NCBI GenBank assembly: GCA_964512695.1
Contig: CAZEJU010000001.1
Span: 7,803-71,802 of the forward strand
Direction: 5' to 3'
Source: an uncultured Gammaproteobacteria bacterium
Lineage (GTDB): Bacteria > Patescibacteriota > Microgenomatia > Levybacterales > UBA12049
Length of the DNA stretch: 64,000 bases
The stretch's first letter is position 1. Each line of letters starts with the position of its first letter. The position numbers and the translations under genes are program-made. Under the pieces are notes generated by a model. That model was not told the origin of the DNA. It made no database searches and worked only from the letters and a program-made list of their open reading frames with translations. Of the stretch, positions 23,822 through 56,331 are shown in pieces.

Positions 23822-23852
23822 CGGAGGTGTATCACGTGCTGTTTGTGAACGA

Positions 23853-24794: not shown

Positions 24795-24823
24795 TTGACA
24801 AGCTCAGGCTGATAAGGTAAAGT
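24795..24823 (+). promoter_or_regulatory. sigma70-like promoter TTGACA-N17-TAAAGT
   Basis: Read directly from the sequence. Confidence 0.5.
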
Positions 24824-24828
24824 ATGGA

Positions 24829-25107
24829 AAGAATCAAGAGTGATGGGGAGACCCCAGTCTGATCTTCCTTTTCGCCTTAGTAGATTTCTACTTCGGCTTA
24901 AAGAGCGATCTTACCGGGGCGGGAGTTTTGGCTTCATGATCCATCCGGCAACCCTTCGGTAAGTTCAAACAATGCTTGAACAACGAGCAGGGTGCCAAAC
25001 CCAACCCAAGAGATGTGCTACCGAGTACATCTTCGTAAAGGAGGATTTGATCCTGAGACAATCGAAGGATAAACTATGTATTACCTCTCTTTACGAGAGG
25101 TTTTTTT
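24829..25107 (+). ncRNA. SAM-I (S-box) riboswitch with enlarged P3 and terminator expression platform
   Basis: Conserved S-box blocks AUCAAGAG (24833-40), CCGGCAACC (24945-53), GGUGCCAA (24981-88) and AGAGAUG. The P1 3' strand AAGAGA can alternatively pair with the UCUCUU 5' arm of the terminator 25084-25107. Confidence 0.6.
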
Positions 25108-25113
25108 ATTTAT

Positions 25114-26868
25114 ATGGCTAAAGAAGGTGAAATAAAAGGCACATATCAGTTTAGTATAGATGGCCCTCAGCTGACCAGTGACGATATACAGAGGAAGTTC
25201 CCTGGTGTCAAAAATAATGGTCATCTCGGAAAGACTGGTGTAGTACTACATGATACAGCAATTCCTATCGCAGCTATCCGACATCCTCGACTTATACCTA
25301 CGCGGTTAGATGGAATTATACCTGTGTTTGGTGGCCCCCAAACACACAGTAAAATAGAGCATATCCGTATCCGACCAGCTGGTGGCTCAGAAGCGAAAAG
25401 AATAGCAAAAGCAGTCCGTGGAACAACCCCAACACTCGGACCAGAAGCAGAAGCATTTGTACATAACAGAAGAACAGGCAGACTTGTACCTACATTTAAA
25501 GGAAAACAAATTGAAACACAAAAAGCACTGAGAGAAGATGCACTTGGACATACGGGATCGCTTGAAGAACACATCGTAGCATCTGCTAAATTTACAGTTT
25601 TTAGAGCTAATCAAGAGCGCAGACGAGGACGTATCGCAGTTGAAACAAGTGTTCCTATAACCTATGGTGAAGGTAAAGATGCTCGAGATAGTGAAGGTCT
25701 CGCAGGTAGTGAAAATCCATATATTGTGGCTATGACACATCTGTTCCCTGAAAATATGCTCCCTACAGAGAAGCTTGATCCACAAGTTGCAAGCGTTTTA
25801 AATCAATACGCTCTTCGCCATGGGTTTGCGACTATTTCTGATATGACCAGCGCTCTCGGTCTTAACCGCACCTGGCACATGGCTGCAAGCCATCTGAGTC
25901 TTGGTCTACCGCAGGAACAACAACCAGATGGGAAATATATTACTTCTACTGAGATCGCGATAGGAGTTATGAATGTATTTATGAGTGACCTTAATATTTC
26001 GCATATGTTTACTCATGGAACACCTATGCTAGGCGGACAATTAGTAGATGTTCCAGCACGAAATCGTCAATCAGAACATGTGGCCTCAAATCAACCGTTA
26101 CGGGATGTACGACTTGGTGCATTTAAGCATATGTTAGGCACTGCTTATCCTGGCCCGCTTATCGCGAATGAAGAAGATCTCTATGATCGCTGGAGAAAGA
26201 TTGTTATTCCAGGGAAAGCCGCGACTGTAGATCGAGCATCGGCAATTAGTATAGCACCAAATGGAGAAATCTATGCCTCAATGCATGCACGGGCTCGTCT
26301 TCGTGTGGGAGGTGATCCCACAAAACAAACTGTACGAGTCGAATCAGTAGGAGATAGCGCTACACCTTCACGCTACGACTTAATAGCGCGTGACGCGTAT
26401 CTAGTAATGTTATGGAACGGTGCTATGGAGGCAATGGCAAAAGGAAAAACCCCACAAGATTTCTGGGGGGGAAATTATCCAGCAATAACTGACTGGAAAA
26501 AGCAGCAGGAAGCGACATTAGGATTTTCTGTTAATGGACCAGCGAATAGGGAAGCACATGTGCTGATTGAACAAAACCTGGGGTTTTTACGTGATATGAA
26601 AGCTCTCCAACCTACATTAGGTACGTACATCGATTATGTAACAGCACGTATTCGTAATTTTAGTAGACCGACAAAAGCACACACACTCGATGAGTATACA
26701 ACAGATCCATCAGGTAGCATAAGCGAGGTAATTCGACGCATGAAAGAAACCGGATATAAAGATGATGAAATCGTGCGAGCTATTGACACACATCAAACTG
26801 CAGTATCACGAAGAGTTGTTCAAGTTCATGGAGATTTTAAAGCGCTTCTACAAGATGTACAAAAGTAA
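25114..26868 (+). CDS. hypothetical 584-aa protein under SAM-riboswitch control
   Basis: Long ORF with coding-like composition and no recognisable motif. Confidence 0.4.
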   Translation: MAKEGEIKGTYQFSIDGPQLTSDDIQRKFPGVKNNGHLGKTGVVLHDTAIPIAAIRHPRLIPTRLDGIIPVFGGPQTHSKIEHIRIRPAGGSEAKRIAKAVRGTTPTLGPEAEAFVHNRRTGRLVPTFKGKQIETQKALREDALGHTGSLEEHIVASAKFTVFRANQERRRGRIAVETSVPITYGEGKDARDSEGLAGSENPYIVAMTHLFPENMLPTEKLDPQVASVLNQYALRHGFATISDMTSALGLNRTWHMAASHLSLGLPQEQQPDGKYITSTEIAIGVMNVFMSDLNISHMFTHGTPMLGGQLVDVPARNRQSEHVASNQPLRDVRLGAFKHMLGTAYPGPLIANEEDLYDRWRKIVIPGKAATVDRASAISIAPNGEIYASMHARARLRVGGDPTKQTVRVESVGDSATPSRYDLIARDAYLVMLWNGAMEAMAKGKTPQDFWGGNYPAITDWKKQQEATLGFSVNGPANREAHVLIEQNLGFLRDMKALQPTLGTYIDYVTARIRNFSRPTKAHTLDEYTTDPSGSISEVIRRMKETGYKDDEIVRAIDTHQTAVSRRVVQVHGDFKALLQDVQK

Positions 26869-28569: not shown

Positions 28570-28620
28570 ATGCAACATACGTTTAATTCTATTATTGTCG
28601 TCCTTCTCGTTACCCATTAA
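28570..28620 (+). promoter_or_regulatory. branched-chain-amino-acid-rich leader peptide ORF (MQHTFNSIIVVLLVTH)
   Basis: ATG CAA CAT ACG TTT AAT TCT ATT ATT GTC GTC CTT CTC GTT ACC CAT TAA. Seven consecutive Ile/Val/Leu codons; near-leaderless. Confidence 0.55.
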
Positions 28621-28696: not shown

Positions 28697-30556
28697 ATGA
28701 GTTCACATAAAGAATATGCAGGGCAAGCTGCTCTCAAATCCTTAGCTGAAAGATATATTAGAAGGTATGGCTTAAAAGCTGATTTTAATCCCGAAGAGAC
28801 AGGTGGAGTAATTTTCGCTCAAGACGGTACACCACTAAGGCAAGTCCGTGCTCCTTTCTGGAGAGCAGAAAAAGGTGCAAAGGGAACAGGCAGAAAAGAT
28901 ATGCCTAGAGTTTACACTGCTACAAATCCTGACCCGGATAAACCTAACTCAGGATTAGAATTAGAATTCCAAGCTTTCCATGCCATGACAGGAGAAATGG
29001 AACCAGTCATGGATGCAGACCACCCAGTACATCAGGGGTTATTGGAACACAATCGAAAAGCAAAAAATGGACACACTGAAAATAATGGAAATGGACTTGG
29101 AAACGGAAATGGGGTTAATGGATATGTTTTTGTAGAAGACGGCGCTGACTGGGACCATGACTTCCCAACTGGACCTAAAGAAGTAGGATTTAGCCCAGAG
29201 CTAACACGTCATACTTTGGAGGAAAACTTTCCTCCGAATGTAGATTCCGGAACACGAAACAGAGAGACATTATATGGTATTAGCACAGTTGTACAATTAG
29301 CAGAAGCAAATAACACACTTATCTCTCCGTTCTCGACTATACCGCATCGAGATATTACACAAATTGATACGAATCAACATCCATATGTCCAACGCATAGC
29401 GTTCGAACACATGGGTCCCGAAAAAGTTAAACACTTTACAGGTACTTCACTGCAAATTCACGTAGAAATCAAGGATTTAGAGTCAGCTTTACACGCTGCA
29501 AACCGTTGGCAGCTAGTTACACCTATTATGTATGCGGGAACACTTTCAGCACCTTTTATCGCAGGAGAAATAACACCCGATTTACAAGAACGGTATGGTC
29601 AAGTTCCCGACGTGGTTGGCGATCCACTAAAAGAAAGCACATTTGATACTATGACACAAGGACCCCATGAATCATATAGATATTATGGTAGATTAATAGG
29701 ATCACCTTCTGGAGGTGCAATGAGACAGCCTCTACCTGAAACATCTGAAGAATTTTGGTCTGCGGCTAATAATCTTCTAAAATCAGGAGAAAGTCCTTCC
29801 GTGGGTAGAGTAGCAGGACACCATGCAGATTTTCGTATTCGCCCTGACTTGGGACCGTATGGCACAATCGAGTTAGCAGTATTAGATACTGCCGGTGCGC
29901 GCATTCCAAATATCGTAGCCATTCAAGAATTCTCCAGAGCTTTGGGTTGGAAGTTACAGAGACAAGCAGGTAATTGGGAACAAATTATGGAAGATCCTCG
30001 TTTTAAATCGATATTCGGGCAAGCACCTTCTAAGGAAACATTCGAGACTGTTCACTGGAATACTATAGAGGTAGCAAAACATGGAAATAAGGCAATGATT
30101 ACTGGTATGGACGGAGAACAGCATTCTATAGCAGAGTTATGGAGTAAGTTAGTGGAATATGTACAAGAACCTATTGAAGAAACCGGTTATACTGGTTTAC
30201 CGGAAGGTATTATCGAGGTATTAGATAAAGCTTATCAAGACCCATCAGAACTATTTGATGTTTATAAAGACGAAAAAGGAGTTACTTCTGTCAAAGGATT
30301 CTATGAAACCGGAGTCGGAACTATGAGCCAGTGGGCCAGACAACGTGCAGAAGAGTTGAAAGCAAGAGGCTTAGCAGAAAAAGAAGCCATTATCGATACT
30401 ACACTTAATGTAGGCAAAAGCTTTCATGAACATGTAAAGTCAATGACACCCAAAGATCTTAATACTTTATATGTAAGCGCTAACAAGGATGTGGATAAAT
30501 CACCCCAATACAGCGCTAATGGTCAGAATCCATCATACCAAACCACTGCGTCCTAA
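28697..30556 (+). CDS. GCS2/YbdK-like carboxylate-amine ligase family protein
   Basis: Motif order parallels E. coli YbdK: GLELEFQAF; SLQIHVEI (GQHVHVG-like); HHADFRIRPDLGPYGTIELAVLDT (HWDIRP..GTVEVRVMDT-like). Confidence 0.5.
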   Translation: MSSHKEYAGQAALKSLAERYIRRYGLKADFNPEETGGVIFAQDGTPLRQVRAPFWRAEKGAKGTGRKDMPRVYTATNPDPDKPNSGLELEFQAFHAMTGEMEPVMDADHPVHQGLLEHNRKAKNGHTENNGNGLGNGNGVNGYVFVEDGADWDHDFPTGPKEVGFSPELTRHTLEENFPPNVDSGTRNRETLYGISTVVQLAEANNTLISPFSTIPHRDITQIDTNQHPYVQRIAFEHMGPEKVKHFTGTSLQIHVEIKDLESALHAANRWQLVTPIMYAGTLSAPFIAGEITPDLQERYGQVPDVVGDPLKESTFDTMTQGPHESYRYYGRLIGSPSGGAMRQPLPETSEEFWSAANNLLKSGESPSVGRVAGHHADFRIRPDLGPYGTIELAVLDTAGARIPNIVAIQEFSRALGWKLQRQAGNWEQIMEDPRFKSIFGQAPSKETFETVHWNTIEVAKHGNKAMITGMDGEQHSIAELWSKLVEYVQEPIEETGYTGLPEGIIEVLDKAYQDPSELFDVYKDEKGVTSVKGFYETGVGTMSQWARQRAEELKARGLAEKEAIIDTTLNVGKSFHEHVKSMTPKDLNTLYVSANKDVDKSPQYSANGQNPSYQTTAS

Positions 30557-30590: not shown

Positions 30591-31676
30591 ATGATTCAAC
30601 AAGAAAGGCTTCTAAAAACATTCTTCGATCTTGTTTCAATCGATAGTCCTACAGGTGAAGAAGAACGCATTCGTAACGAACTCTCAAATCGTTTGAAAAA
30701 ACTTGGCGCTGAAACAGTGGAAAAAGATACCTATGGTAACCTCATAGCGAAATTCCATGGTGAAGGTGAACCGCTCATGATTAACTGCCATATGGACACT
30801 GTAGAGCCCGGTAGAGGCATAGTACCAATTATGAAAGGTGATAGAGTAGAAACCGACGGGAAGACAATTCTAGCGGGTGATGCAAAGGCAGGTTTAGCGA
30901 TTATCCTCGAAGCCTTAACTTCACTAAAAGAAGAAAATAAAAAACATGTACCTATCGAAATCGTCTTTACTGTAGAGGAGGAAACTGGACTTTATGGAGC
31001 TGTTAACCTCGACTATTCAAAAGTCTCCGCAAAAAAAGGATTTGTTTTTGATGGTTCAAAAGATCCTTGTACCTTAACCACATCAGCACCGGGATATTAT
31101 AGAGTCGATGTTACAATCATAGGAAGAGCGGCTCATGCGGGAGCCGAACCTGAAAAAGGTATTTCAGCTATTAAAATCGCTTCTGATATTATTACGAAGC
31201 TCGAGGTAGGCAGAATTGATGAAGAAACTACGGCAAACGTCGGTATTATAGAAGGCGGAAGCGCCCGGAATGCAGTACCAGAAAAAGCACATTTTAAGGC
31301 AGAAATTCGAAGTAGAAAGCTAGAAAAGCTTGAAAAACATGCAGGTCATTTCCAAGAAGTTTTTGAGGAAGCGATGAAGAAACATCCTGAAGCGAAAATA
31401 GAGATAGACATGCATTTAGAATTTAATCCATATATTTTCGATGAAAACCATCATGTTATTCAGCTTGCGAGTAAAGCGTTAAGCGAACTAGGACAAACAC
31501 CGAAACTTGCACCTTCGAATGGAGGATCCGATGTCAATATTTTTATTTCACACGATATAGAAACAGTGGCTGTAGGAATTGGCGATTATAATGCTCATAC
31601 AACCCGCGAATACGTCGTCATATCTGAAATAGTGTTAGGAGCTAGACTCTGCGAAAAACTCCTTGAGGCGAAGTAA
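30591..31676 (+). CDS. M20 family peptidase, peptidase T (PepT)-like
   Basis: LLKTFFDLVSIDSPTGEE; metal-binding HMDTV, GAVN/DGS region and E-rich catalytic region. Paralog of 39896. Confidence 0.7.
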   Translation: MIQQERLLKTFFDLVSIDSPTGEEERIRNELSNRLKKLGAETVEKDTYGNLIAKFHGEGEPLMINCHMDTVEPGRGIVPIMKGDRVETDGKTILAGDAKAGLAIILEALTSLKEENKKHVPIEIVFTVEEETGLYGAVNLDYSKVSAKKGFVFDGSKDPCTLTTSAPGYYRVDVTIIGRAAHAGAEPEKGISAIKIASDIITKLEVGRIDEETTANVGIIEGGSARNAVPEKAHFKAEIRSRKLEKLEKHAGHFQEVFEEAMKKHPEAKIEIDMHLEFNPYIFDENHHVIQLASKALSELGQTPKLAPSNGGSDVNIFISHDIETVAVGIGDYNAHTTREYVVISEIVLGARLCEKLLEAK

Positions 31677-31759
31677 ATTGGTATATTGCTAAACTGCTAA
31701 TTGTTACGTGAGAGTAACCATACAACAATACCCATATCAATAAATTTTCGCTACAAAAA

Positions 31760-31788
31760 TTGACACGTCATTAACCTCATGGTAGAAT
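31760..31788 (+). promoter_or_regulatory. sigma70 promoter TTGACA-N17-TAGAAT
   Basis: Read directly from the sequence. Confidence 0.6.
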
Positions 31789-31794
31789 TACTAT

Positions 31795-32108
31795 AACATA
31801 CGAATAACAGCGTTGATCCAGTATGGATGGGACTGGGGATTCTCCTTCATTAAAGTTACGCAAGGAGAGCGCTGGGTCTAATCAACCCCGGAGGCGAAAC
31901 CGTAAAAAGATCAGCAACATGTGTCATAGCTGCAGATAAGCACTGATTAAAAGCTGATTCTCGCTGATATAGAGCATGTCATGAATGAGAAGTCCTCCCA
32001 CGCCAAAGCTCCGGAGGATAAAACAAGGTGGCACCGTCCTTAAATAAACGTGGGACCCTTGTAAATAACTACAAAGTAATTTTGTGGTTGTTTACAAGGG
32101 TTTTTTTA
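31795..32108 (+). ncRNA. T-box riboswitch leader (antiterminator AAGG-UGGCACC-GUCC; terminator + T7)
   Basis: AAGGUGGCACCGUCC (~32026-32040) matches the T-box consensus AGGGUGGNACCGCG, including the 7-nt UGGNACC bulge. The 3' strand GGACCCUUG overlaps the 5' arm of the terminator 32057-32108. A candidate Stem I spans GUUGAUC...GAUCAGCAAC. Confidence 0.5.
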
Positions 32109-32120
32109 ATGGTAAAAACT

Positions 32121-33269
32121 ATGAAAGAAGGAGTTATTATACAAGTTGATCCGAGAATACCAGAGCCATATATAACATATATCCGGCAACGAAATGGGAA
32201 TGTCGGCAGAGATATAGCAGATCACCTTGGCCTACCCTATGTAGGAGACAGTCAGGGAGTACAACGTGCAGCTGATTATTATCCTGTACTTGCCAGAACT
32301 GTCACCAGAGAACATGCAAGAGTATTAGGTGCAGAAAATACAAGAGATTTCTATGGTCTTGCAGTTGAAGATTTAAATGTTGTGGGTAAATCTATACTCC
32401 ATCCTTCTATAAGCAGAAGACATCCTTTATTTCATAGAGAACAATTCGCACGAAAAGTCTTAGGTCAAACCCTTCCTGGTATAACCGGTTTCTCTAAAGA
32501 AGATTTATTAGCAGGGTATGAAAATGGTTACGCTGGATCACTGGATCATGCTTTAGATTACGAGCAGTATGGATTACGTGTTAAACTTCCAAATGAATCC
32601 GACGGCGTAGGACAATTTACTATACAAAGCAAGGATGATCTGGTTACTCTTCTAGAAGCTATTGAGGATAAAGATATCCACGAACAAGGACTGGTTCTGG
32701 AAGCTGATGTACAGAAACCTGAGACTATATCAGTCGGATTCGCGAGAATCGGTGATGAACAATTAAGTTTCATAGCCCAACAAAAAGATGCACGTGTGTT
32801 AGTAGATCATAAGGGCAAAACAATAGAGCAGAATAGATATGGTGGGGCATACGTCGTTGTGGCAAAAGGCCCTTTACAGTTACTATGCCAAGCCACGGAA
32901 GCAACTTCGCGTGAGAGATCTGCTGTAGAAAAAACACTGGCGTTTCATGAAGCCTATCAACGCATCTATGATCCTTTAGCTTCGAGATTAAGTTTCGATG
33001 TCATTTTCGGAGAAGGGAAAAACGGTCTCCCACTTGCAGGAATAAGTGACATTACTGGTAGGCTAGGTGGAACGTGTCCAGCACTCATGCAAGCTGCTGA
33101 AGAGTTCAGGAAAAACCCTTCTATTCAAATGGTAGGAACAGAAGTATCTCTTAATTATACTCCCCATGTACGATTTCCCTATGAAGATGAAGCTAAGGTG
33201 TATGTAGACCACCCAACACTCAGACTTACAGCAAGAGTAAACTCAAAACACAGAAGACTCGCAGCATAG
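32121..33269 (+). CDS. ATP-grasp-like protein
   Basis: GLRVKLPNESDGVGQFTIQSKDDL resembles the ATP-grasp central motif, but weakly. Start set at MKEGV downstream of the T-box terminator; the ORF-track start lies inside the leader. Confidence 0.35.
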   Translation: MKEGVIIQVDPRIPEPYITYIRQRNGNVGRDIADHLGLPYVGDSQGVQRAADYYPVLARTVTREHARVLGAENTRDFYGLAVEDLNVVGKSILHPSISRRHPLFHREQFARKVLGQTLPGITGFSKEDLLAGYENGYAGSLDHALDYEQYGLRVKLPNESDGVGQFTIQSKDDLVTLLEAIEDKDIHEQGLVLEADVQKPETISVGFARIGDEQLSFIAQQKDARVLVDHKGKTIEQNRYGGAYVVVAKGPLQLLCQATEATSRERSAVEKTLAFHEAYQRIYDPLASRLSFDVIFGEGKNGLPLAGISDITGRLGGTCPALMQAAEEFRKNPSIQMVGTEVSLNYTPHVRFPYEDEAKVYVDHPTLRLTARVNSKHRRLAA

Positions 33270-33314: not shown

Positions 33315-33371
33315 ATGATACGACAAGCAGTAAATTTCTTTTTCTTTTTTACCCCACTCGCGGGGAGGTAA
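33315..33371 (+). promoter_or_regulatory. Phe-rich leader peptide ORF (MIRQAVNFFFFFTPLAGR; five consecutive Phe codons)
   Basis: ATG ATA CGA CAA GCA GTA AAT TTC TTT TTC TTT TTT ACC CCA CTC GCG GGG AGG TAA. Leaderless. Its 3' end runs through the hairpin CCCCACUCGCGGGG, whose GCGGGG can alternatively pair with the CCCCGC of the terminator. Confidence 0.6.
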
Positions 33372-33435: not shown

Positions 33436-35136
33436 ATGGCAATGACTGAACAAGACATACTAAAAGGTACAATGAACGGCCGAGTTGATTCAGGTTTAAA
33501 GGCAACTGATAACACAGCAGTACCTTTAGGTGAACAATCTCATGGCGGCATAGTCCGAAATACCGATGGACTATGGTGGCTACCTGCCTCACCACATCGC
33601 GGAAGGGGTTTCGAATGGCAAGACTCAAAGGATCCTAGATATAACGCAACACATTTAAGTGAAGTTGGCTACCACCCTGAACCTCTAGAACCACAGAGAA
33701 CCGTAGAAGTATTAGCTGAACATTTACAAGAAAAAGTTGAAGGAAGAATTCCGGAAACAGAAACCCATGGAGTTGAAGTTGAAGGGACTACCTATGATCG
33801 AGAAGGCAATCTCTTAGCAATTCCTGTCGATCAGAAAACAAATCCCGAATTATTAGCTTCTACACATGAAGAAGCCACAAAACTGGAAAACGGACAGTAC
33901 CCGAGAAAACCATTTGAAATAGCTCGAGCAGTAGCCAGTGCAACCCAGCGGGGTATCGCAATCGCTGAAAATCATAGCGGAATACTTGTCCTCACAGAAG
34001 TACCAGAAGGTGGAACATTTCATGATGCTGAAAACAGTACATTTCCATATATAGTACGTCAACAAGGAAGAATTCGAAGACACGCATTAGCACACCTTGA
34101 TGAGATACCTGAAGAAACATGGGCTCTCTATCGACGTTACGGCGTAGATATTCGAGAACTACTGGAATCTAATAGACCGCTCAATTGGCCTACTCATGGA
34201 TTGCATCATCATGCCGGTGCGCCACAAATAGAAGGATTAGTCGACCCGAGAGCCGCACTGGTTATGGGAAAAATGCGTCAAACACTTTTTGCAAAATTAC
34301 TGCAATACCCAGCATTTAATAGCAGTAGATTATATGAAAAAGAAACTGATCTCCGCGGAGTCCGATCTGTCGCAAAACACGCGCTTGCTACAACAGTTAA
34401 TAATGATTTACCTGATAGTGCTGAAGAGCTAATGTGGGATGTGCAACGGGCAATGAGAGAGGGAGAAATCGCTACGCCTTCACGATATCCTTATAAAGGC
34501 CAACACGATGTCGTTCGATTTAGGATGGATGGAAAACATAAAACTGTCGAGTCTATTAAAGATCCTATGACACCTGACCTATTAACAGCGCTTCATCTCG
34601 TGTTCGGCAATCAACTCCTGGATACCATCGGCCAGCAAGCTCTCGTACAAGTAGGTGGAGATGAAAGCAAAGTTATGGGTTATTTACAATCTATACATCC
34701 TGAGCTTTTTGCCACATTGCCTTCATTAGGTCCTGAGTCATCACATAGTGCAGATATGCAGTTTAATAAAGCAGGGTATCTAGGAACATTCCGCGGGAAA
34801 ACTTATGCTGAGCTTATAAGAGATGCACGTGCTGTCGTGGAAGGGGTAGGCAAACATTATACAGCACTTGAGACACAAGCTAAAATTGTAAATCACGTAC
34901 TAGGATACCAAACAGATATTCCTCATCCACAGACTGATCTAGCAACATTTATGGGAATAAAAAATGGAGTTTACCAACCAAATAGTATGAGAGCAGGAAT
35001 TCTAACGGATTATAAAACGGGTATTCCTACAAATGAACTGTTAGTTGTCCAGGCTGAAGCAACGAAATTACAAGCTCAAGCTTTAGCACAAGTGAGAGAT
35101 GATAAAGATCTTCTCGAAGTGTATGGATTACAGTAA
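33436..35136 (+). CDS. GCS2/YbdK-like carboxylate-amine ligase family paralog
   Basis: THGLHHHAG and VVRFRMDGKHKTVESI align with the GxHVHVG and HWDIRP..GTVEVR motifs of the family. Paralog of 28697, 41323 and 56332. Confidence 0.4.
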   Translation: MAMTEQDILKGTMNGRVDSGLKATDNTAVPLGEQSHGGIVRNTDGLWWLPASPHRGRGFEWQDSKDPRYNATHLSEVGYHPEPLEPQRTVEVLAEHLQEKVEGRIPETETHGVEVEGTTYDREGNLLAIPVDQKTNPELLASTHEEATKLENGQYPRKPFEIARAVASATQRGIAIAENHSGILVLTEVPEGGTFHDAENSTFPYIVRQQGRIRRHALAHLDEIPEETWALYRRYGVDIRELLESNRPLNWPTHGLHHHAGAPQIEGLVDPRAALVMGKMRQTLFAKLLQYPAFNSSRLYEKETDLRGVRSVAKHALATTVNNDLPDSAEELMWDVQRAMREGEIATPSRYPYKGQHDVVRFRMDGKHKTVESIKDPMTPDLLTALHLVFGNQLLDTIGQQALVQVGGDESKVMGYLQSIHPELFATLPSLGPESSHSADMQFNKAGYLGTFRGKTYAELIRDARAVVEGVGKHYTALETQAKIVNHVLGYQTDIPHPQTDLATFMGIKNGVYQPNSMRAGILTDYKTGIPTNELLVVQAEATKLQAQALAQVRDDKDLLEVYGLQ

Positions 35137-37202: not shown

Positions 37203-37247
37203 ATGAAATCCACTTTTTTAGTTTGTTGTGTTACAACTCTGCTTTAA
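37203..37247 (+). promoter_or_regulatory. leader peptide ORF MKSTFLVCCVTTLL (tandem Cys-Cys, Thr-Thr, Leu-Leu)
   Basis: ATG AAA TCC ACT TTT TTA GTT TGT TGT GTT ACA ACT CTG CTT TAA. Its stop abuts GGGG of the antiterminator, which pairs with CCCC of the terminator. Confidence 0.45.
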
Positions 37248-37274
37248 GGGGTTGTAGTTATCGTGGAATATGCA

Positions 37275-37296
37275 CCCCGCCAAGCGGGGTTTTTTT
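37275..37296 (+). terminator. intrinsic terminator CCCCGCcaaGCGGGG + T7 directly abutting the start codon
   Basis: 6-bp GC stem, 3-nt loop, 7 T, then ATG at 37297. Confidence 0.6.
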
Positions 37297-38289
37297 ATGA
37301 GAAACTTATTAGAATTAGGAATTTTCGAAACATACGGAAATGGTGGAGGAGCAATTACCAAAGATAGAGTATCTCCTCCTATTTATCCAGTAGATGCTAA
37401 TTTAGGTGAATGGAGGATACTAGCAACTGATCATGAAAGAGAATTCCCGGGCGAGCATCTCGAACGTGCTTTTGAAGTGATAAAGCAATGGCAGGAAGTA
37501 TTTCCTCGGGAAGATACCTGGATTAATCGTGCGTATGGTATTCCGTCACCGATTATTAAACTCGATGCAACAATTACTAATAATGAATTACAGGTGTATG
37601 AAGTAGAAGATAGACCAGCAGGAATGGGTTATAGCGAATTAATAAATCCTGACTTACGAACAAATTTTGCTGATATTGTATCTACTTGGCCAGATTTCCG
37701 AGTCGTCGTTTCTCCTCAAAGATCTGGAAATGACGATCATTTATGGGCAAAGCCAGCAGAAGCAGATTGGCATGGTCTAGTTCTCGTCCGGGCAGAACCG
37801 TCTGAAGAAGAATTCCATGCATTACAGCGAAGATCCATAAGTACTCTGCTTACAGAAGGAGACAAATCGTATGGTGAAAAAATGGGTTTATGGAAAAGAG
37901 TTCATACAGCAGATGAGATAGATTTTTCACAAGGTTTTGTCGTCAAGCCCACCCAAGGAAGCAAAGGGAATGGTGTGTATGTATCTTTACCGAAACAATA
38001 CATGAAAGAACATGGGATCGACCCAGGTAGAAATGGCGTAGCTACTGCAGGGAAAATACGAGGTGTAATCGATACTGCAGCAGCAAATGGAGGAGTCTTC
38101 GTACAACAATATCATCCTCCTATGGAAACAGGTATCCCGACCCATCCCTGGGCAGTAAACCGGTTATTCTTCGGGTATGATATGCAAAATGGAGAATGGA
38201 GATATATAGGGGGAACATGGAATGCTCGAAATAATTTGAAAATTCATGGAGCTAGTGATACATTAACTGGCCCGTTAAAAACGGTATAA
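37297..38289 (+). CDS. ATP-grasp-like protein
   Basis: FVVKPTQGSKGNGVYVS and ELQVYEVEDRPAGMG motifs, though in an unusual order. Start placed after the terminator T-run. Confidence 0.35.
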   Translation: MRNLLELGIFETYGNGGGAITKDRVSPPIYPVDANLGEWRILATDHEREFPGEHLERAFEVIKQWQEVFPREDTWINRAYGIPSPIIKLDATITNNELQVYEVEDRPAGMGYSELINPDLRTNFADIVSTWPDFRVVVSPQRSGNDDHLWAKPAEADWHGLVLVRAEPSEEEFHALQRRSISTLLTEGDKSYGEKMGLWKRVHTADEIDFSQGFVVKPTQGSKGNGVYVSLPKQYMKEHGIDPGRNGVATAGKIRGVIDTAAANGGVFVQQYHPPMETGIPTHPWAVNRLFFGYDMQNGEWRYIGGTWNARNNLKIHGASDTLTGPLKTV

Positions 38290-38390: not shown

Positions 38391-38438
38391 ATGAATATCA
38401 TGAATAACAATGGAGCAGTAAAGAAGAACCTCTCGTAA
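38391..38438 (+). promoter_or_regulatory. Asn-rich leader peptide ORF (MNIMNNNGAVKKNLS; 5 Asn, including NNN)
   Basis: ATG AAT ATC ATG AAT AAC AAT GGA GCA GTA AAG AAG AAC CTC TCG TAA. The 3' end overlaps the hairpin CCUCUCguaaGAGGGG, whose 3' arm can pair with the CCCCUUAC of the terminator. Confidence 0.55.
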
Positions 38439-38615: not shown

Positions 38616-39899
38616 ATGAAAGAAGGACTAAAAGTATTATCACACTCATCTATAGAGGAATATCTATTCGATACTGATGTCGAAGACCGATATTATATTC
38701 CGTGGCGTGCAGCCGCAGAAGCAGCAGCAAGAATCGAACTAGGACAACAAGTTTTGACAATCCTTCCAAAACGTGAAGCTTTTAACGAATACCTCACCCT
38801 TTTACAAATGAAATTACTGGGAGGAAGAAGTATTCCAACGCTGTTTACACCTGATGAAGATTATCTTATGGATACTGATATTAAAAAATATCTTATGGAT
38901 ACTCTTCGTGGCAGATTTAACAGAAGTACCACTATTCATCCCTATCAAGCAACACCTGAATTTTATGATTGGGCGGGGGAGTTAGAACAGAAAGGCGTTA
39001 AAATTTACGCAGATAGAAAACGCAAAGACTTACGTGACTGGTGGGGACATAAAGGAGCATATCATCGATGGATAGATGATCTCGATACTCCCACTCAATT
39101 TGAAGGATTACATTTACCAATACCTCGAGGATACGTGGCTCAAAACCATGGAGAATTACTTGTAGCGAAAAAACTTCTACCAACTGACACTGTTGTGGCA
39201 AAACCAATTTTCGGAGCTGGTGGATTTCAAATAGAGTTCTTAGACGACGATAATATCGATACATATGAATGGCCTACCGACCCCACAACGGAAAAACCCA
39301 TGCCAGTTGCTGTACAAGAAAGACTAAGAATTGGTCGAGATGAATTCGGCGAACGTGTTTTTTCCTACCAGTTTGAGGGCCCACAACCAATGGGACGATT
39401 AACACGACAAATTATGGATCAGGAAACTGGGAAAGTCTGGAGTGGGAATAGAGTACCAGCAGATGTTACACCTGAGTTTGAACGAAGAGCAAAGGATGTA
39501 GTTCATACTTTAGTCATGAAAACAAAACCAAAAGGAGACGGGGGAGTCGATATAGCAGATGTAGATGGAGAACCAGTAATCATCGAAGTAAACGGAGGAA
39601 GGCCAACTGGCGCACATATGCCGAAACGATTTCAACAAGCCTTCGCGCCTGAAGCTCCACATTTCGTATTTCAGAAAGTAGAACCAAACGGATATTCACC
39701 ATTCGATATTTGGGATAGACTCGAAGGAGGAAACTTGCCTCGCACGAATGAAACTCTAGTATTTCAGCGTGAAAGACAACGCGGGGTTTTTCCATTAGTT
39801 TGGTTACCGAACTCTTGGGGAATGCTTGCAAGCTTCGGAGGATCATTCGAAGAAGCAAATAATCAGTTACTCGCAGCTCGTGATAGAATAGGCGTATGA
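38616..39899 (+). CDS. ATP-grasp ligase family protein
   Basis: VVAKPIFGAGGFQIEF (central domain) and EPVIIEVNGGRPTGAHMP (C-domain E.N.RP motif) in canonical order. Confidence 0.5.
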   Translation: MKEGLKVLSHSSIEEYLFDTDVEDRYYIPWRAAAEAAARIELGQQVLTILPKREAFNEYLTLLQMKLLGGRSIPTLFTPDEDYLMDTDIKKYLMDTLRGRFNRSTTIHPYQATPEFYDWAGELEQKGVKIYADRKRKDLRDWWGHKGAYHRWIDDLDTPTQFEGLHLPIPRGYVAQNHGELLVAKKLLPTDTVVAKPIFGAGGFQIEFLDDDNIDTYEWPTDPTTEKPMPVAVQERLRIGRDEFGERVFSYQFEGPQPMGRLTRQIMDQETGKVWSGNRVPADVTPEFERRAKDVVHTLVMKTKPKGDGGVDIADVDGEPVIIEVNGGRPTGAHMPKRFQQAFAPEAPHFVFQKVEPNGYSPFDIWDRLEGGNLPRTNETLVFQRERQRGVFPLVWLPNSWGMLASFGGSFEEANNQLLAARDRIGV

Positions 39900-40966
39900 C
39901 TGAGAAAAGGGTAGTACAAATATTTTTCGATTTAGTAAAAATTGACAGCCCTTCTGGACATGAAGAGAACGTTTTAGAGTATATAGAAGCATATTGCAAA
40001 AAACTCTCACTAAATACACAGAGGGATTCTTATGGAAACCTCATCGTTAAAAAAGAAGGAGTAGGTGAACCACTACTTCTCTGTTCACATGCCGATACAG
40101 TAGAACCAGGGAAAAATATTCAACCACGAATAGAGAACGGAATTATAAAAAGCGATGGTACGACGATACTTGGTGCTGATAATAAATCGTCTATTGCAGC
40201 GATTCTCGAGGCTGTGAAACAATTAGTTGAAGAAAAAAAACACCATAGGCCTCTAGAGCTTGTGTTTACAAAATCTGAAGAAGTTGCTAGCTGGGGAGCA
40301 GTATATCTGGACTACAAACAACTTCAAGCAAAAGAAGGATATACGATAGATAACGCAAATCCTGTAGGAACAATTGTCTACGCGTCTCCTTTTTACTATC
40401 GTTTCGATATTACAGTATTCGGTAAAGATGCCCATGCTTCAAGACCGCATGAAGGAATTCATGCTTTAAAAATCGCTGCAAGCGCCATTCATAAAATAAA
40501 ACTTGGAAAAATTGATACAAATACACTTGCCAATATCGGCATGATCCAATCAGGCCATGTACGCAACACAATTCCAGGTTCAGTAGTGCTTATGGGAGAA
40601 GTACGAAGCTATTCCGATGAGAAAGCTCAAAGGTACTTAAACAAAATTATTGATACATTTAGAAAAACTGCAGAAAAAACGGGAGGATCTATAACGTACG
40701 AAACGCTGAAAGAAAATGCTGGGTATATATATAAAACAAATGATCCCTTTGTAAAAAAAACGATGCAGATTATGAAAAAGATTGGAGTAGAAACGAACTT
40801 AATTAAAACTCTGGGCTGTGCCGATGCAAATGTGATCCAAGAGCATGGAATTAAAATGCTCGACCTGGGCGACGGCTCACGCAGAGCGCATACACTAAAG
40901 GAGTCAATACCGGTAGCACAGTTACAAAGAGTCGTTGAGCTAGTATTAGCTCTTGCTGGAGCATAA
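39896..40966 (+). CDS. M20 family peptidase, PepT-like (paralog of 30591)
   Basis: VVQIFFDLVKIDSPSGHEE; HADTVEPG metal site. Overlaps the stop of 38616 by 4 nt, so the two are translationally coupled. Confidence 0.7.
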   Translation: MTEKRVVQIFFDLVKIDSPSGHEENVLEYIEAYCKKLSLNTQRDSYGNLIVKKEGVGEPLLLCSHADTVEPGKNIQPRIENGIIKSDGTTILGADNKSSIAAILEAVKQLVEEKKHHRPLELVFTKSEEVASWGAVYLDYKQLQAKEGYTIDNANPVGTIVYASPFYYRFDITVFGKDAHASRPHEGIHALKIAASAIHKIKLGKIDTNTLANIGMIQSGHVRNTIPGSVVLMGEVRSYSDEKAQRYLNKIIDTFRKTAEKTGGSITYETLKENAGYIYKTNDPFVKKTMQIMKKIGVETNLIKTLGCADANVIQEHGIKMLDLGDGSRRAHTLKESIPVAQLQRVVELVLALAGA

Positions 40967-41067
40967 AACCATACACTCTTCACCCTCCCTTTTCGAATTT
41001 ACGTGAACACTTCCCGAGGTTTGAATAGAAACCAACCTCCCAGGTTGGCAACTAGTAATTTGAGGAC

Positions 41068-41097
41068 TTGCTTAAGGGAGCGTTTATGCGATATACT
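41068..41097 (+). promoter_or_regulatory. sigma70-like promoter TTGCTT-N18-TATACT
   Basis: Read directly from the sequence. Confidence 0.45.
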
Positions 41098-41106
41098 TTC
41101 TTCAAC

Positions 41107-41154
41107 ATGAGTAAATCAGTTTTCGGAACTACCACTACAACAACCCTTTCCTAA
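41107..41154 (+). promoter_or_regulatory. Thr-rich leader peptide ORF (MSKSVFGTTTTTTLS; six consecutive Thr codons)
   Basis: ATG AGT AAA TCA GTT TTC GGA ACT ACC ACT ACA ACA ACC CTT TCC TAA. Its stop abuts GGGAGGUUG (41155-63), which pairs with CAACCUCC (41180-87), the 5' arm of the terminator. Confidence 0.6.
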
Positions 41155-41182
41155 GGGAGGTTGGCGTGGTATTATTTAACAA

Positions 41183-41204
41183 CCTCCTTAATAGGAGGTT
41201 TTTT
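41183..41204 (+). terminator. intrinsic terminator CCTCCTtaatAGGAGG + T6
   Basis: Perfect 6-bp stem plus a T-run. A ~118-nt spacer follows before the 41323 start. Confidence 0.55.
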
Positions 41205-41322
41205 ATTGGGGAGAACACGTATCCGTCAGCTGAGGGATACCACGATAGAATCCCATGGATTATTGCATGGAATCCTATCGCCCCGGTGTACGTCAGGACT
41301 GAAAGCTGACCACAAATAACAT

Positions 41323-43107
41323 ATGACAAACGAACAAGAACTAAAAATAGGAGGACAAAAATCAGCGACGAAAGTTGATTTCGCTCATGCTGAGCATCCT
41401 TTAACCCATGCACGTCTTTATGAAGCAGTAGAAGAACGACGTGGTACCGTAGGTCCTGTAGGAGATGTTCCCAGAGCATATATAAGGGACTCTGCAACTG
41501 CGGCAATTATAGTAAGCACACCTTCAAAAGAGGTGGTTGCTGCTGTTCGATCACCTCTATGGATTCCTAGTGGTGTACGAAATGGAAGAGTAGAATTTGG
41601 TGGAAGACCAGATAAAGATCATATCGAATTTTCTTACTTACGTGAAACTGATTGGGAGTATGTAAAAGAATCTGCGAGGAAAAGATTAGACGCACTTAAA
41701 AAAGCCACAAAACTTAACGAATTTGTTGCTGAGCATGGAGGCTATCTCGGTATAGGAACAGAGCCGGAAGCATTTCTCCTTCATGAAGATGGCAGTGTCG
41801 TACAGATAAACGCTGGAGAGTCATTTTTAGGCCAGAGAGAAGACGCTCTGCCACCGATAGCGACACCCAGAGAGTATGCCCGCGCACGAGCGGAACTTAT
41901 TCAAAATCGAAGACAGCAATTACAGGCTGGTCAAATTGCCTTCGACGGCTCAGTTCGACCTACGGGGAAGATGAGCGAAACAAGAATAACCCAAGAAGGT
42001 GATGAAGCAATATATAATGTAGCTATCACGCAAGCGCTCCATACACGATACACCCATTGTGCAGATCCATTAACACGACAAATCATGGATCAGCTTGCTA
42101 AAACAGAAAACTATAGAGATTTTGACGAAATCTATAATCATGCTTCAACGATAACATACTGGGGTCCTCCCTCTGCATCGCATGCAGCTATAGGAATGCA
42201 TCAAAGACGCGAAAATGGGACAACCTTTGTACCAGAATGGGAAGCAGTAGCTCATGCAGATGTCATAAATAGCGATTTCGCAACTGCTGATGAACTACTG
42301 ATGATGTCAACGCCAGTCATATTCGGAGAACAACCTCAAGTTTTACATAAAGGTACATGGAGAAAACCACGCGACTATCGTCATTTTATGCGACATGTCG
42401 TTGACACTACCTATCCAGCACCTTTTGTCGGCTCGCCAGAAGCATTACGAGCAAATGTTACCGACAGTATACTCTCCGGCAGATCGCACACACTTGATAG
42501 ATCTGCATATACTGCAGATGTACATGGTTTATTAGTCCCTAACTATCATGGAAGAGTACGGATTAGACAAAAGGTTGATGTTACTCATAAAGGAGAAATT
42601 AAACAATCATGCCGTATAGAAGAAACAGGATGTTCACAGTCCGCATCTTTACCTGATGAATTGGCAAGAAATGCACTTATGCAGCTTAGAGCTGTTGCTG
42701 TCGACGAAGCCCTCGCAGCAGGTATGCATCCCTCTGAATTCTATAAAGAGAAATATCCGCATATGACAACTTGGCAAAAGCAGCAAGATATCGTACTCCA
42801 TGCAAATCTCTATGGTTTCCGACATCCTTTACCATCTGCTGTGATAATGGAAAATATTAGGCTTGTACGAGATATCGGTAAGAGATATCCTGTACTCGGT
42901 CTTCAAGCCGTACTCGCAGAAACACGCTTGAGAAATTTATTTGATGATCCAGCACGCTCTTTAGAAGTTTATGAACAAAAACCTATTGGTCCATTTAGCG
43001 AAGTTCTCCAGAATGAATTACATAATGGTACTTCACCTGTAGAACTCGCTCAAAAAGTAGCCGCTTACCAGGATACAGTAGCGGAAAAGATATTAAGAGT
43101 TCCATAG
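41323..43107 (+). CDS. GCS2/YbdK-like carboxylate-amine ligase family paralog
   Basis: EPEAFLLHED, SHAAIGMHQ and HGRVRIRQKVDVTHKGEI align with the family motifs, weakly. Lies immediately upstream of thrS. Confidence 0.35.
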   Translation: MTNEQELKIGGQKSATKVDFAHAEHPLTHARLYEAVEERRGTVGPVGDVPRAYIRDSATAAIIVSTPSKEVVAAVRSPLWIPSGVRNGRVEFGGRPDKDHIEFSYLRETDWEYVKESARKRLDALKKATKLNEFVAEHGGYLGIGTEPEAFLLHEDGSVVQINAGESFLGQREDALPPIATPREYARARAELIQNRRQQLQAGQIAFDGSVRPTGKMSETRITQEGDEAIYNVAITQALHTRYTHCADPLTRQIMDQLAKTENYRDFDEIYNHASTITYWGPPSASHAAIGMHQRRENGTTFVPEWEAVAHADVINSDFATADELLMMSTPVIFGEQPQVLHKGTWRKPRDYRHFMRHVVDTTYPAPFVGSPEALRANVTDSILSGRSHTLDRSAYTADVHGLLVPNYHGRVRIRQKVDVTHKGEIKQSCRIEETGCSQSASLPDELARNALMQLRAVAVDEALAAGMHPSEFYKEKYPHMTTWQKQQDIVLHANLYGFRHPLPSAVIMENIRLVRDIGKRYPVLGLQAVLAETRLRNLFDDPARSLEVYEQKPIGPFSEVLQNELHNGTSPVELAQKVAAYQDTVAEKILRVP

Positions 43108-43197
43108 GTACAAAGATGCAAGGTTCTACCGTAGTTCTCTGTAACATAAGATCTTCGTAACTATGCAACTATTCGCAGGTATGTTATAGTACAGCTT

Positions 43198-54419: not shown

Positions 54420-55760
54420 CTACTTTACTATTGGGATGAAAGCCGACAGTTGTAACCCATTGATATAATTTTGCTTTTTTTCATCTTTTTTTCCTTCTCT
54501 TCCTAACGTGTTTAATTTTATTAACAAATATTTCTTTTGCAGAAGTTCAGCAAGTTTCGCGAAACGTTTTAGATTATTCCAACTCTCAAAAACTTTTTTC
54601 GGATTTTGAAACTCTGATGCCAGTGCAGAAACTTCTGGTGTATCTTTAGCTTCCTCTAGTAATTGTATGCAAGTCTCCCAATTCGTTAGGATTGTTTGAG
54701 CAATAGGAATAAAAAAGTCATAAGAGGTATATTCAGCTACCTCATCATCATCGCTCAACTTATACCTTCCACGGTCAAGTGAAACTTGATGGAGAATATT
54801 TGCCCAGAATTCATCAGGTGTCAGACCACTGACTTCATATAGCTTTAAGACATCTGGAAATGCATGGATTGCATCATGGGTACTTATATCTTGTTCAAAT
54901 GTTGCTTCATGAGTTTTTGGATCAAGGTGATAGCGTCGTATATATTTAAACATTCTATCATAACCAAATATTTCTCCTGCTGCTCTGAAATTAGTAATGT
55001 CTAACTCCTTCCATTCATTGATCCATGATTCTAAGTTTTTTGATCCACTAGTTATTGCATCAAATGCTCTTTTAAAATCTTCTGAAGATCTTAAGTTAAG
55101 AATGTCAATTCCCGCTTTCTTTACAAACTCTGCATCTATAGGAGATATACCGACTTTATGTGCATAATCAATTTCACTCCTTGTTAAACCAGAAGGTTCA
55201 ATAATTTTATTTAACAAAGCGTAAGCATGATCAAACGGTAAGACATATTCACAAATTGCATAAAGATCTGAGAAGGAATTAACGTTATATGATGCAAAAA
55301 GAGATTGAAGCTGCGGTGGCATATCCTTTTTATATTCTTCTAATAAACCTTTTGAATCGATATCTTTGAACACCTGCATGATCTGACCATTTAGATCGGA
55401 CTCTCTTCCGTAGTTTGTTATTAAGAAATTGGAAAGTACGTTTAAAGGGGGAGGTGTCTGGGAGTGATCATAAATATATTTATAAAAATCAAACCTTTTA
55501 ACTTGTCTAGACCCAGTTCTATTATCATCAGTTAATAATTCATAGGTTTTAGCTGCCTCATCTGGTGTAAGAACTAGGCCATTATATTGAGTTTGTAATT
55601 CTTCTACTAACTTTGTATTATCTTCTCCTTCGACTGTGGAAAATTTTCTAAAAAGATCTTCGAATTTTGCTTTTCTTTCTATTTCAGCAGGATTAACTTC
55701 TACAACACTATTAGTATCTGATATCTGATATCTGATATCTGATATCGACAATATCTTCAT
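54420..55760 (-). CDS. hypothetical protein
   Basis: 446-aa ORF. Divergent from the 56332 promoter. Confidence 0.3.
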   Translation of the reverse strand: MKILSISDIRYQISDTNSVVEVNPAEIERKAKFEDLFRKFSTVEGEDNTKLVEELQTQYNGLVLTPDEAAKTYELLTDDNRTGSRQVKRFDFYKYIYDHSQTPPPLNVLSNFLITNYGRESDLNGQIMQVFKDIDSKGLLEEYKKDMPPQLQSLFASYNVNSFSDLYAICEYVLPFDHAYALLNKIIEPSGLTRSEIDYAHKVGISPIDAEFVKKAGIDILNLRSSEDFKRAFDAITSGSKNLESWINEWKELDITNFRAAGEIFGYDRMFKYIRRYHLDPKTHEATFEQDISTHDAIHAFPDVLKLYEVSGLTPDEFWANILHQVSLDRGRYKLSDDDEVAEYTSYDFFIPIAQTILTNWETCIQLLEEAKDTPEVSALASEFQNPKKVFESWNNLKRFAKLAELLQKKYLLIKLNTLGREGKKDEKKQNYINGLQLSAFIPIVK

Positions 55761-55845: not shown

Positions 55846-56331
55846 ACAATTTATAAAGGCTATGACGAAGTCAAAGTAGTTTTCGCAGAGTGACACCAGA
55901 GAGAAGACGTCGCTGCAAGATCTTCCGTATCTTCGAAAATGAATTACGCTTCTGAGCTGTATGCCGAATCCGTTAACCGATGGATAGGCAGAACCGGGTT
56001 CGCACCGTGATAGCGAAAGAATGTGTCGCAGAAGAAGTGGAGCATTCGAAAATAAGCGTTTATCGTATTACTTCGAATCCCTTCATAAGGGATTTTTTAT
56101 TGCTAAGATAAGCGAAACCGAGGTGGTACCACGGAGAAAAATTAAAAGGTAAAAGGTAAAAATTGTATAAGGAAAGATAGTAGTAATTTTACTTTGGACT
56201 TTTGACTTTACACTTTTAACTTTCTTGTTCCGTCCTTGAGAATCATTATTGTTCGAGTGAAGTGAGAGTTATTTTTTACACATAAACTTCTCATTTTGTT
56301 CGAAGAATAGTATTTCTGGGACGGTTTTTTT
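55846..56331 (+). ncRNA. T-box riboswitch-like leader (AGGUGGUACCACGG) with an ~85-nt palindromic insertion and GGGACGG+T7 abutting the start codon
   Basis: AGGUGGUACCACGG at 56121-56134 matches the T-box core AGGGUGGUACCGCGG. Downstream CCGUCCUUG (56229-37) can pair with ACGG/CGAGG, forming an antiterminator, and also with GGGACGG (56318-24), forming the terminator. Confidence 0.45.

Follow-up and report, generated by a model that had tools for sequence, protein, structure and literature searches.

In the thrL leader of Escherichia coli, a short open reading frame (ORF) with a run of Thr (and Ile) codons is combined with three structures, 1:2, 2:3 and 3:4, and transcription reads through when charged tRNA-Thr is limiting. 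In E. coli pheM-pheST, a leader-peptide attenuator stands before aminoacyl-tRNA synthetase (aaRS) genes. Microgenomates-type Patescibacteria, the group from which the DNA studied here comes, are generally seen as amino-acid auxotrophs. A 2010 survey lists leader peptides only for Proteobacteria, Actinobacteria and, newly, Firmicutes, where bacilli have a His leader upstream of a hisS paralog and of hisZ (PMC2965389). In Staphylococcus aureus, hmrA-ldmS encodes an M20 peptidase and an ATP-dependent L-Asp-L-Met ligase, is controlled by CodY/CymR or an S-box riboswitch, and is derepressed under sulfur amino-acid shortage (PMC9486568). Our literature search returned no paper tying leader-peptide attenuation or T-boxes to the candidate phyla radiation. 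Here we analyze a stretch of 64,000 nucleotides (nt) from contig CAZEJU010000001.1 (this whole stretch is called the window), in which a short ORF with six tandem Thr codons is followed by a gene for a protein of 594 amino acids (aa) and then by thrS. We conclude, with a probability of about 75%, that this ORF and the hairpins associated with it constitute a ribosome-mediated leader-peptide transcription attenuator that is specific for threonine, drives the 594-aa gene and adds to the expression of thrS.

The elements of the proposed attenuator are collected in Table 1. The six Thr codons (ACT ACC ACT ACA ACA ACC) occupy positions 41128 to 41145, and the leader stop codon abuts GGGAGGTTGG (41155 to 41164). 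In the minimum-energy fold, the segment after the stop that pairs with the Thr codons is GGUUGGCGUGGU; this hairpin 1:2 is predicted to sequester segment 2 when the leader is untranslated. Segment 3 contains the 8-mer CAACCTCC (41180 to 41187). The terminator reads AACCTCCT-taat-AGGAGGTT in the DNA (41181 to 41200), followed by a T run, and a consensus scan called it with a GC-containing stem of 8 base pairs. Upstream, the promoter hexamers are also found in a second genome (L002, a 3-kb contig) as TTGCTT, 18 nt and TATAAT, although their flanks have diverged. Transcription would start approximately 2 to 4 nt 5' of the leader ATG, as judged from the sequence, and the leader ORF would be nearly leaderless because the start site is placed there. 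The six-Thr leader ORF, the stop-adjacent segment and the overlap of its pairing partner with a terminator had been pointed out in a preliminary description of this DNA, made by a model from the letters alone, and all are present in the sequence. A further hairpin, ACCAACCTCCCAGGTTGGT (41031 to 41049), lies just 5' of the attenuator promoter and bears the same 8-mer as segment 3; it could serve as terminator to the upstream M20 peptidase gene, or it could be what is left of a duplicated cassette.

Table 1. Coordinates of the Thr attenuator, of the genes behind it and of related features in the window.
Feature	Position	Strand	Description
Promoter-like site	41068-41097	+	-35 TTGCTT (41068-41073), 18-nt spacer, -10 TATACT (41092-41097)
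Leader ORF, 15 codons	41107-41154	+	MSKSVFGTTTTTTLS; ATG 41107, TAA 41152-41154
Hairpin 1:2	41131-41170	+	Thr codons ACCACUACAACAACCC paired with GGGAGGUUGGCGUGGU across the stop; minimum-energy fold
Antiterminator 2:3	41153-41189	+	AAGGGAGGUUG (41153-41163) paired with CAACCUCCUU (41180-41189); excludes the terminator
Intrinsic terminator 3:4	41181-41204	+	AACCUCCU-uaau-AGGAGGUU, then U run
Regulated gene, 594-aa protein	41323-43107	+	YbdK/glutamate-cysteine-ligase fold; rare uncharacterized family, Patescibacteria sources only
Intergenic region, 90 nt	43108-43197	+	No terminator-like hairpin; holds extended -10 TGTTATAGT
thrS, threonine--tRNA ligase, 579 aa	43198-44937	+	TIGR00418, 674 bits; Pfam domains; no TGS domain
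584-aa ORF	25114-26868		Paralog of the 594-aa protein, 26% identical, E 4e-38
619-aa ORF	28697-30556		Weak match to YbdK-family models (TIGR02050), E 4.5e-6
566-aa ORF	33436-35136		Remote homolog of the 594-aa family, hhalign probability 98.4%, E 5e-15
Met leader	23771-23821		MHYIKVENMMAMMMTS; terminator 23851-23870, element to 23875; before gene at ~23887-24684
Ile/Val/Leu-rich leader	28570-28620		MQHTFNSIIVVLLVTH; terminator ACCCGCT-caaaga-AGCGGG-T7, element to 28669; before 619-aa gene
Phe leader (five Phe)	33315-33371		MIRQAVNFFFFFTPLAGR; terminator, element to 33416; before 566-aa gene
Asn/Lys-rich short ORF	38391-38438		MNIMNNNGAVKKNLS; terminator, element to 38486; before ORFs 38616-39899 and 39896-40966

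Folding of positions 41085 to 41210 gave hairpin 1:2 and the terminator as the minimum-energy structure, with a z score of -4.4 (200 shuffles). Thr runs of at least six residues occurred in none of 200 Markov-1 randomizations of the window, and across its six frames the six-Thr run is the sole run of at least six identical residues, apart from its own reverse complement (VVVVVV, 41127 to 41144). The effect of a translating ribosome was modelled by masking the RNA under a ribosome of assumed footprint size and refolding the remainder. With the A site on any of Thr codons 1 to 5, antiterminator 2:3 became the minimum-energy structure and the terminator was lost; when the ribosome stood at Thr6 or at the stop codon, the antiterminator was gone and the terminator alone formed; and with the ribosome absent, hairpin 1:2 and the terminator formed. 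In this model the three folding states match the classical logic of trp and thr attenuators. No features of a T-box were found by Rfam at 41.1 kb.

Two homologous attenuators were found in other genomes. L002 encodes the closer relative of the 594-aa protein (76% identity), with thrS 3' of the gene. The L002 leader, MSKSIIITTTTTTLS, retains the ATG AGT AAA start and all six Thr residues, with synonymous codon changes, and carries three Ile codons ahead of the Thr run; the stop, segment 2 and the terminator (with an altered loop) are also retained, and the sequence has diverged on both sides. L017 encodes the threonyl-tRNA synthetase (ThrRS) most similar to that of the window (89% identity) and has no 594-aa gene at its thrS locus; there, promoter, leader and terminator sit directly 5' of thrS. 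The L017 leader, MKKLFKINTTTFF (Thr3), the stop-adjacent AGGAGGTTG and the terminator GCCTCC-caaaaa-GGAGG-T7 can be aligned with the window element. A consensus fold of the three sequences retains both hairpins, with one compensatory change (C-G to U-A) in hairpin 1:2 and, in the terminator, loop changes and one U-A to U-G change. Conservation in L002 and L017 argues that the attenuator is real and, in this lineage, tied to thrS. A tandem-codon ORF, an intrinsic terminator, an exclusive antiterminator (in silico) and conservation (in three sequences) are therefore all in place for a leader-peptide attenuator, and the thrL-like switching that the preliminary description had proposed, like its expectation that the leader ORF would be conserved, is borne out by the footprint modelling, by the L002 leader and by the shortened L017 homolog. 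Among the loci examined, the Thr leader, a 594-aa family enzyme and thrS occur together only in the window and L002.

In the mechanism that we propose, transcription would begin a few bases 5' of the 15-codon leader ORF. With abundant Thr-tRNA, the ribosome would reach the UAA codon and cover GGGAGGUUG, CAACCUCC would pair with AGGAGGUU, and transcription would terminate at the U run (approximately 41200 to 41204). When Thr-tRNA is scarce, the ribosome would stall within the six-Thr run and mask segment 1, GGGAGGUUG would pair with CAACCUCC, and with the antiterminator formed and the terminator thereby prevented, transcription would enter the 594-aa gene. On an untranslated leader, segments 1 and 2 would pair and the terminator would form. 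Read-through transcripts would extend to thrS and the genes behind it, so that Thr limitation would add to basal thrS expression, and the soluble 594-aa product would belong to a response of acquisition or salvage that starvation induces.

The 594-aa ORF is followed by thrS after a 90-nt gap, as had been described earlier, and thrS heads the gene string thrS-infC-rpmI-rplT-pheS-pheT, whose downstream order is the same in L017 to L021. The gap was said to have neither an obvious promoter nor a terminator. As to the terminator this holds, since a consensus scan of the + strand found none between the 594-aa gene and thrS; read-through transcripts should therefore carry thrS. As to the promoter it does not: the extended -10 TGTTATAGT lies at 43182 to 43190, 7 nt 5' of the thrS ATG, within GT(A/G)TGTTATAGTA(C/G)AGC, the one island of this spacer that the window and L002 have kept in common, the remainder having diverged. 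In L018, L019, L020 and L021, which have no attenuator, TG(N)TATAGT or TATAAT is found 6 to 15 nt 5' of thrS. The suggestion that thrS shares the Thr-responsive read-through thus stands in part: because thrS bears its own promoter-like extended -10, its coregulation is at most partial, and thrS is probably expressed at a basal level from its own promoter with Thr-responsive read-through in addition. The motif TGNTATART occurs 14 times in the window against 7.5 expected. Its sites (for example, 43182 to 43190, 61234 to 61242 and, on the minus strand, 23676 to 23684 and 12777 to 12785) often lie 6 to 17 nt before start codons or tRNAs, and this enrichment near starts suggests that many mRNAs of this genome are leaderless or nearly so. 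In L020, a threonine dehydratase gene (PALP and Thr_dehydrat_C) and a RidA-family gene (1676 to 3349) lie just 5' of thrS, near an M20 peptidase gene; this arrangement is another link in the group between thrS and threonine metabolism genes.

Next, the 594-aa protein was characterized. Sequence and profile searches of Pfam, NCBIfam and PDB gave no real relative, either for this protein or for 51 members of its family; none of the 51 matched Pfam GCS2 (PF04107), and the NCBIfam YbdK model did not match the 594-aa protein. The only PDB profile matches were designed helical repeats aligned to the C-terminal helices, and these were rejected as relatives. Among 5.8 billion protein clusters, a word-indexed search found only two relatives, a metagenome scan with a four-sequence alignment gave two loci, and an exhaustive profile search recovered only 90 proteins from 1.84 billion representatives; the family loci from named genomes all belong to Patescibacteria, Microgenomates or Roizmanbacteria. 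With the 51-sequence alignment, AlphaFold gave a model with a predicted local distance difference test score of 92.6 and a predicted template modeling score of 0.93 (with the four-sequence alignment, the former score was 40.6 and the model was unusable). Foldseek agreed with a YbdK/glutamate-cysteine ligase (GCL) fold, which places the protein in this superfamily at the level of fold, while its identity to YbdK/GCS2 and glutamate-cysteine ligases (PDB 1tt4, 1r8g, 2gwc, 3ig5 and 1v4g) is 10 to 13%. The model has an extra beta-rich domain of approximately 110 residues at its N terminus, and its helical C-terminal region is longer. G145, E147, E149, E166, E173, R393, R413, R431 and E433 are invariant in the family, and H287, D351, R353 and R415 are nearly so; the conserved acidic, His and Arg residues resemble active-site and metal- or nucleotide-binding motifs of the ligase superfamily and are read as candidates for these.

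The preliminary description had called the 594-aa gene a GCS2-like, ligase-family paralog and had set it beside the GCS2-like gene located before tyrS, which encodes 459 aa. At the level of fold, "GCS2-like" appears correct on the strength of the model, but the protein is not a member of Pfam GCS2, and BLASTP of the two proteins gave nothing significant. A profile-profile comparison aligned the two families over 48 columns, restricted to the GxExE/ExxxxxxE segment (E 0.017, probability 2.7%). With neither comparison significant, the relationship was downgraded from paralogy to membership in the same fold superfamily. Because the fold implies ATP-dependent carboxylate-amine chemistry, the reaction is most likely of the ATP-dependent carboxylate-amine ligase type, on threonine or a threonine derivative; by analogy with Dop, it may instead be hydrolytic. 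The attenuator implies a need for the enzyme during a shortage of charged tRNA-Thr, and we infer from this control that it acts on Thr. With modest confidence, we regard it as an enzyme that is specific for Thr, is induced by starvation and takes part in the acquisition or salvage of amino acids.

The family neighborhoods were compared. The pairing of this family with an aaRS gene that had been anticipated did not recur: in the genomes examined, the family gene adjoins an aaRS gene only in the window and L002, and elsewhere it is accompanied by the 566-aa remote paralog, which stands behind it in a single operon, by an M20 peptidase gene or by both. In L001/L009, L003, L005 and L008, the family gene is followed by the 566-aa homolog and then the M20 peptidase gene (usually with intervening genes), in L007 and L012 by the M20 peptidase gene alone, and in L006 only the family gene and the 566-aa homolog are visible. 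All eight other family loci with an intact 5' end have a leader ORF and a terminator upstream, and these leaders (MKFRVLSVIILVLLITA, MNKSGFSIIVIIICRVGG and MKARVLSIIFVLFIILA among them) abound in Ile, Leu, Val and Phe. In L010 (approximately 9440 to 9840), L011 (approximately 880 to 1090) and L012 (approximately 5470 to 5825), leader-plus-terminator pairs stand in tandem before the family gene. The window itself has two paralogous M20 peptidase genes (30591 to 31676 and 39896 to 40966, 37% identity), which accompany the two clusters of ligase-like genes.

A parallel layout at 55.8 kb, consisting of a T-box, a GCS2-like gene and tyrS, had also been reported earlier, and it is indeed present. 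Positions 55853 to 56072 match the T-box model with 58 bits (E 5e-12), below the Rfam gathering score of 93, and UAC (Tyr) stands at the specifier position by reading of the alignment. The leader (55853 to 56331) continues with a large insertion and a GGTGGTACC motif at approximately 56122, and it ends in a long interrupted terminator; the U run of this terminator reaches right up to the start codon (ATG) of the GCS2-like gene, and a Shine-Dalgarno sequence is lacking. The gene encodes the 459-aa Pfam GCS2 protein, of a family common in Patescibacteria, and is followed by tyrS. In L014, a bacterial-type tyrS is followed by the leader MKNIFEKLINYYYSTVR (Tyr-Tyr-Tyr) with a terminator (3885 to 3990), a GCS2 gene and an M20 peptidase gene; in L015, the leader MIVLNTQSYYYFQP (Tyr-Tyr-Tyr) with a terminator (3789 to 3885) precedes a GCS2 gene and a gene for an archaeal-type tyrosyl-tRNA synthetase (TyrRS; NF006330, 366 bits). 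In L016, the GCS2-like gene has no adjoining aaRS gene. An Rfam search of L014 to L016 found no T-box. The GCS2-like subfamily is thus tied to tyrosine in three of four genomes, by two kinds of sensor and with two nonorthologous types of TyrRS. Control by a Tyr T-box here and by Tyr-Tyr-Tyr leaders elsewhere indicates that, in this group, enzymes of this kind are generally under the control of a specific amino acid. The recurrence in L014 and L015 favors the earlier proposal that each of these enzymes belongs to one amino acid, for which the tyrosine link is the strongest support.

The arrangement of promoter, short ORF, stop beside a G-rich segment, and terminator recurs at other sites in the window (Table 1). 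The Met and Thr elements have almost the same 3' half (stop, segment 2 and terminator), TTCCTAA(C/G)GGAGGT...ACCTCCTTA(C/A)TAGGAGGTTTTTT, and the two look like copies of one cassette in which the codon run was swapped. The gene behind the Met leader, for which ATG 23887 is the likelier start because the listed GTG 23827 overlaps the terminator, encodes a SAM hydroxide adenosyltransferase C-terminal domain. Enzymes of this type free methionine from S-adenosylmethionine (SAM), and a Met-attenuated enzyme that releases methionine fits a starvation-induced amino-acid supply. Behind the Asn/Lys-rich short ORF, the ORF at 38616 to 39899 is an ATP-grasp gene that overlaps the PepT-like M20 peptidase gene at 39896 to 40966.

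Less clear elements were noted as well. A weaker candidate leader, MKSTFLVCCVTTLL, lies at 37203 to 37290, where a short hairpin overlaps the listed start of a 339-aa ORF (37270 to 38289) that has no family match; this element may or may not be an attenuator. A structured leader of approximately 300 nt (24815 to 25112, z = -3.4) has a terminator directly before the 584-aa gene. It has no Rfam family match, and the S-box-like motifs AUCAAGAG, CCGGCAACC and GGUGCCAAA that can be picked out in it by eye lack Rfam support, so that an S-box is not claimed; a new or degenerate riboswitch is possible. A 5' region of approximately 330 nt (31700 to 32027) before a DUF3182 gene (32028 to 33269) has a promoter-like TTGACA...TAGAAT and no significant Rfam match, and a tandem 7-mer repeat (ATCTGAT / TGATATC, 55716 to 55750) is found at the 5' end of a minus-strand ORF (54420 to 55760) that has no family match.

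Several results weigh against a Thr attenuator that acts on both the 594-aa gene and thrS. The leader promoter was not called by the consensus scan (cut-off, 9 of 12 positions), its -35 TTGCTT matching in 4 of 6 positions, and the leader ORF lacks a Shine-Dalgarno sequence, so that its translation would depend on the near-leaderless start. Support from covariation is thin, with one compensatory pair, because only three homologous attenuators were found. For L002 with a stalled ribosome, the equilibrium model still prefers the terminator, and for this reason the switch there would need to be kinetic. No Thr_leader match was listed up to an E value of 10 in an Rfam scan of positions 40900 to 41400, in which the best leader-type match was a weak one to Phe_leader (20 bits, E 0.68). 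With regard to function, the induction of a Thr-consuming ligase by a lack of Thr is a paradox, and one that has also been stated for LdmS, which likewise uses up the amino acid in short supply (PMC9486568). Finally, given the conserved promoter-like element of thrS, Thr control of thrS could be negligible. The missing Shine-Dalgarno sequence and the uncalled promoter would also suit an untranslated short ORF with an incidental Thr run, its hairpins acting constitutively as a terminator or insulator behind the M20 gene, or as a switch that binds a protein or tRNA, and the second hairpin with CAACCTCC (41031 to 41049) and the occurrence of T-boxes in this genome point the same way. However, the start, the Thr run (through synonymous changes) and the stop beside segment 2 are conserved in L002, and a shortened form is found in L017; moreover, the six-Thr run is not expected by chance, runs of Met, Phe and Ile/Val/Leu take the place of the Thr run in sister elements of the window, and no Rfam RNA family matches at 41.1 kb. 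We consider this explanation very improbable.

The attenuator might govern the 594-aa gene only, with thrS transcribed essentially from its own extended -10 and without meaningful Thr regulation, as the position of TGTTATAGT within a conserved island, the similar -10 elements of L018 to L021 and the enrichment of such motifs directly before other genes and tRNAs of the window would allow; yet read-through should include thrS in the absence of an intervening terminator, and the homologous attenuator placed directly on thrS in L017 indicates that Thr-responsive control of thrS exists in the lineage. A restriction to the 594-aa gene is, in our judgment, doubtful. The L017 arrangement, in which the 594-aa gene is missing, also bears on the enzyme: the attenuator could be real and the 594-aa protein a passenger inserted between thrS and an ancestral attenuator of thrS, with a branched-chain amino acid or something unrelated as its substrate. 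The Ile/Leu/Val/Phe-rich leaders of the other family members examined, which have no thrS, and the three Ile codons of the L002 leader are in keeping with a passenger, whereas the retention of the arrangement at only 76% identity between the enzymes of the two genomes, the agreement elsewhere (Tyr) between leader amino acid and neighboring aaRS, and the placement of the other window paralogs each under a different amino-acid leader speak against one. We regard a passenger as unlikely and retain the Thr attenuator that drives the 594-aa gene and adds to thrS expression.

Taken together, these loci suggest a larger scheme, which we put forward tentatively and with the odds still somewhat against it. 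It would be a hidden regulon of YbdK/GCL-fold enzymes, together with M20 peptidases and often the cognate aaRS, in which each unit is induced by the shortage of one amino acid through attenuators or interchangeable T-boxes, giving an undescribed, amino-acid-specific chemistry of acquisition or salvage with the 594-aa protein as its threonine member. At least five window genes (encoding 584, 619, 566, 594 and 459 aa) are counted in such a regulon, and its amino acids so far may be Thr, Ile/Leu/Val, Phe, Tyr and perhaps Met. If the scheme is true, the chemistry could be, for example, the making or breaking of gamma-glutamyl-type amino-acid conjugates. Since the leader peptide acts as a sequence-encoded label of the amino acid of each enzyme, the function of this Pfam-less family is directly testable, and the answer would bear on how these reduced, host-dependent bacteria acquire amino acids.

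The comparison with known systems can now be made. The closest described analogue in logic is hmrA-ldmS: its ligase gene is derepressed when a specific amino acid is short, as is proposed for the 594-aa gene, and relatives of the 594-aa gene also precede M20 peptidase genes. LdmS, however, is an ATP-grasp enzyme and not of the GCL fold, its regulators are proteins or a riboswitch, and in the window the M20 gene lies upstream of the 594-aa gene and under a separate leader. Like the Firmicutes T-boxes of thrS and tyrS, the Thr element would raise aaRS expression when a shortage of the cognate charged tRNA relieves a terminator; unlike a T-box, in which uncharged tRNA binds the RNA, its proposed sensor is a stalled ribosome. 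With pheM-pheST and the His leader of bacilli it shares control of transcription into an aaRS or aaRS-paralog gene by a leader peptide that abounds in the cognate amino acid, but it occurs in a different phylum, a non-aaRS enzyme stands between attenuator and aaRS, and the aaRS has a promoter of its own.

As in E. coli thrL, a Thr-codon ORF is combined with hairpin 1:2, antiterminator 2:3 and terminator 3:4, and Ile codons are also present in L002. The window leader differs in being shorter (15 codons), nearly leaderless, in Patescibacteria and without a Thr_leader match, and its targets are a YbdK/GCL-fold enzyme and thrS rather than the thrABC biosynthetic genes. The switching mechanism is thus classical textbook attenuation. 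What appear to be new are the phylum, leader ORFs that are nearly leaderless, attenuators that resemble cassettes and are interchanged with T-boxes, and a set of switches for several amino acids, as well as the genes under their control, which appear to be aaRS genes and an uncharacterized radiation of YbdK/GCL-fold enzymes in place of biosynthetic operons.

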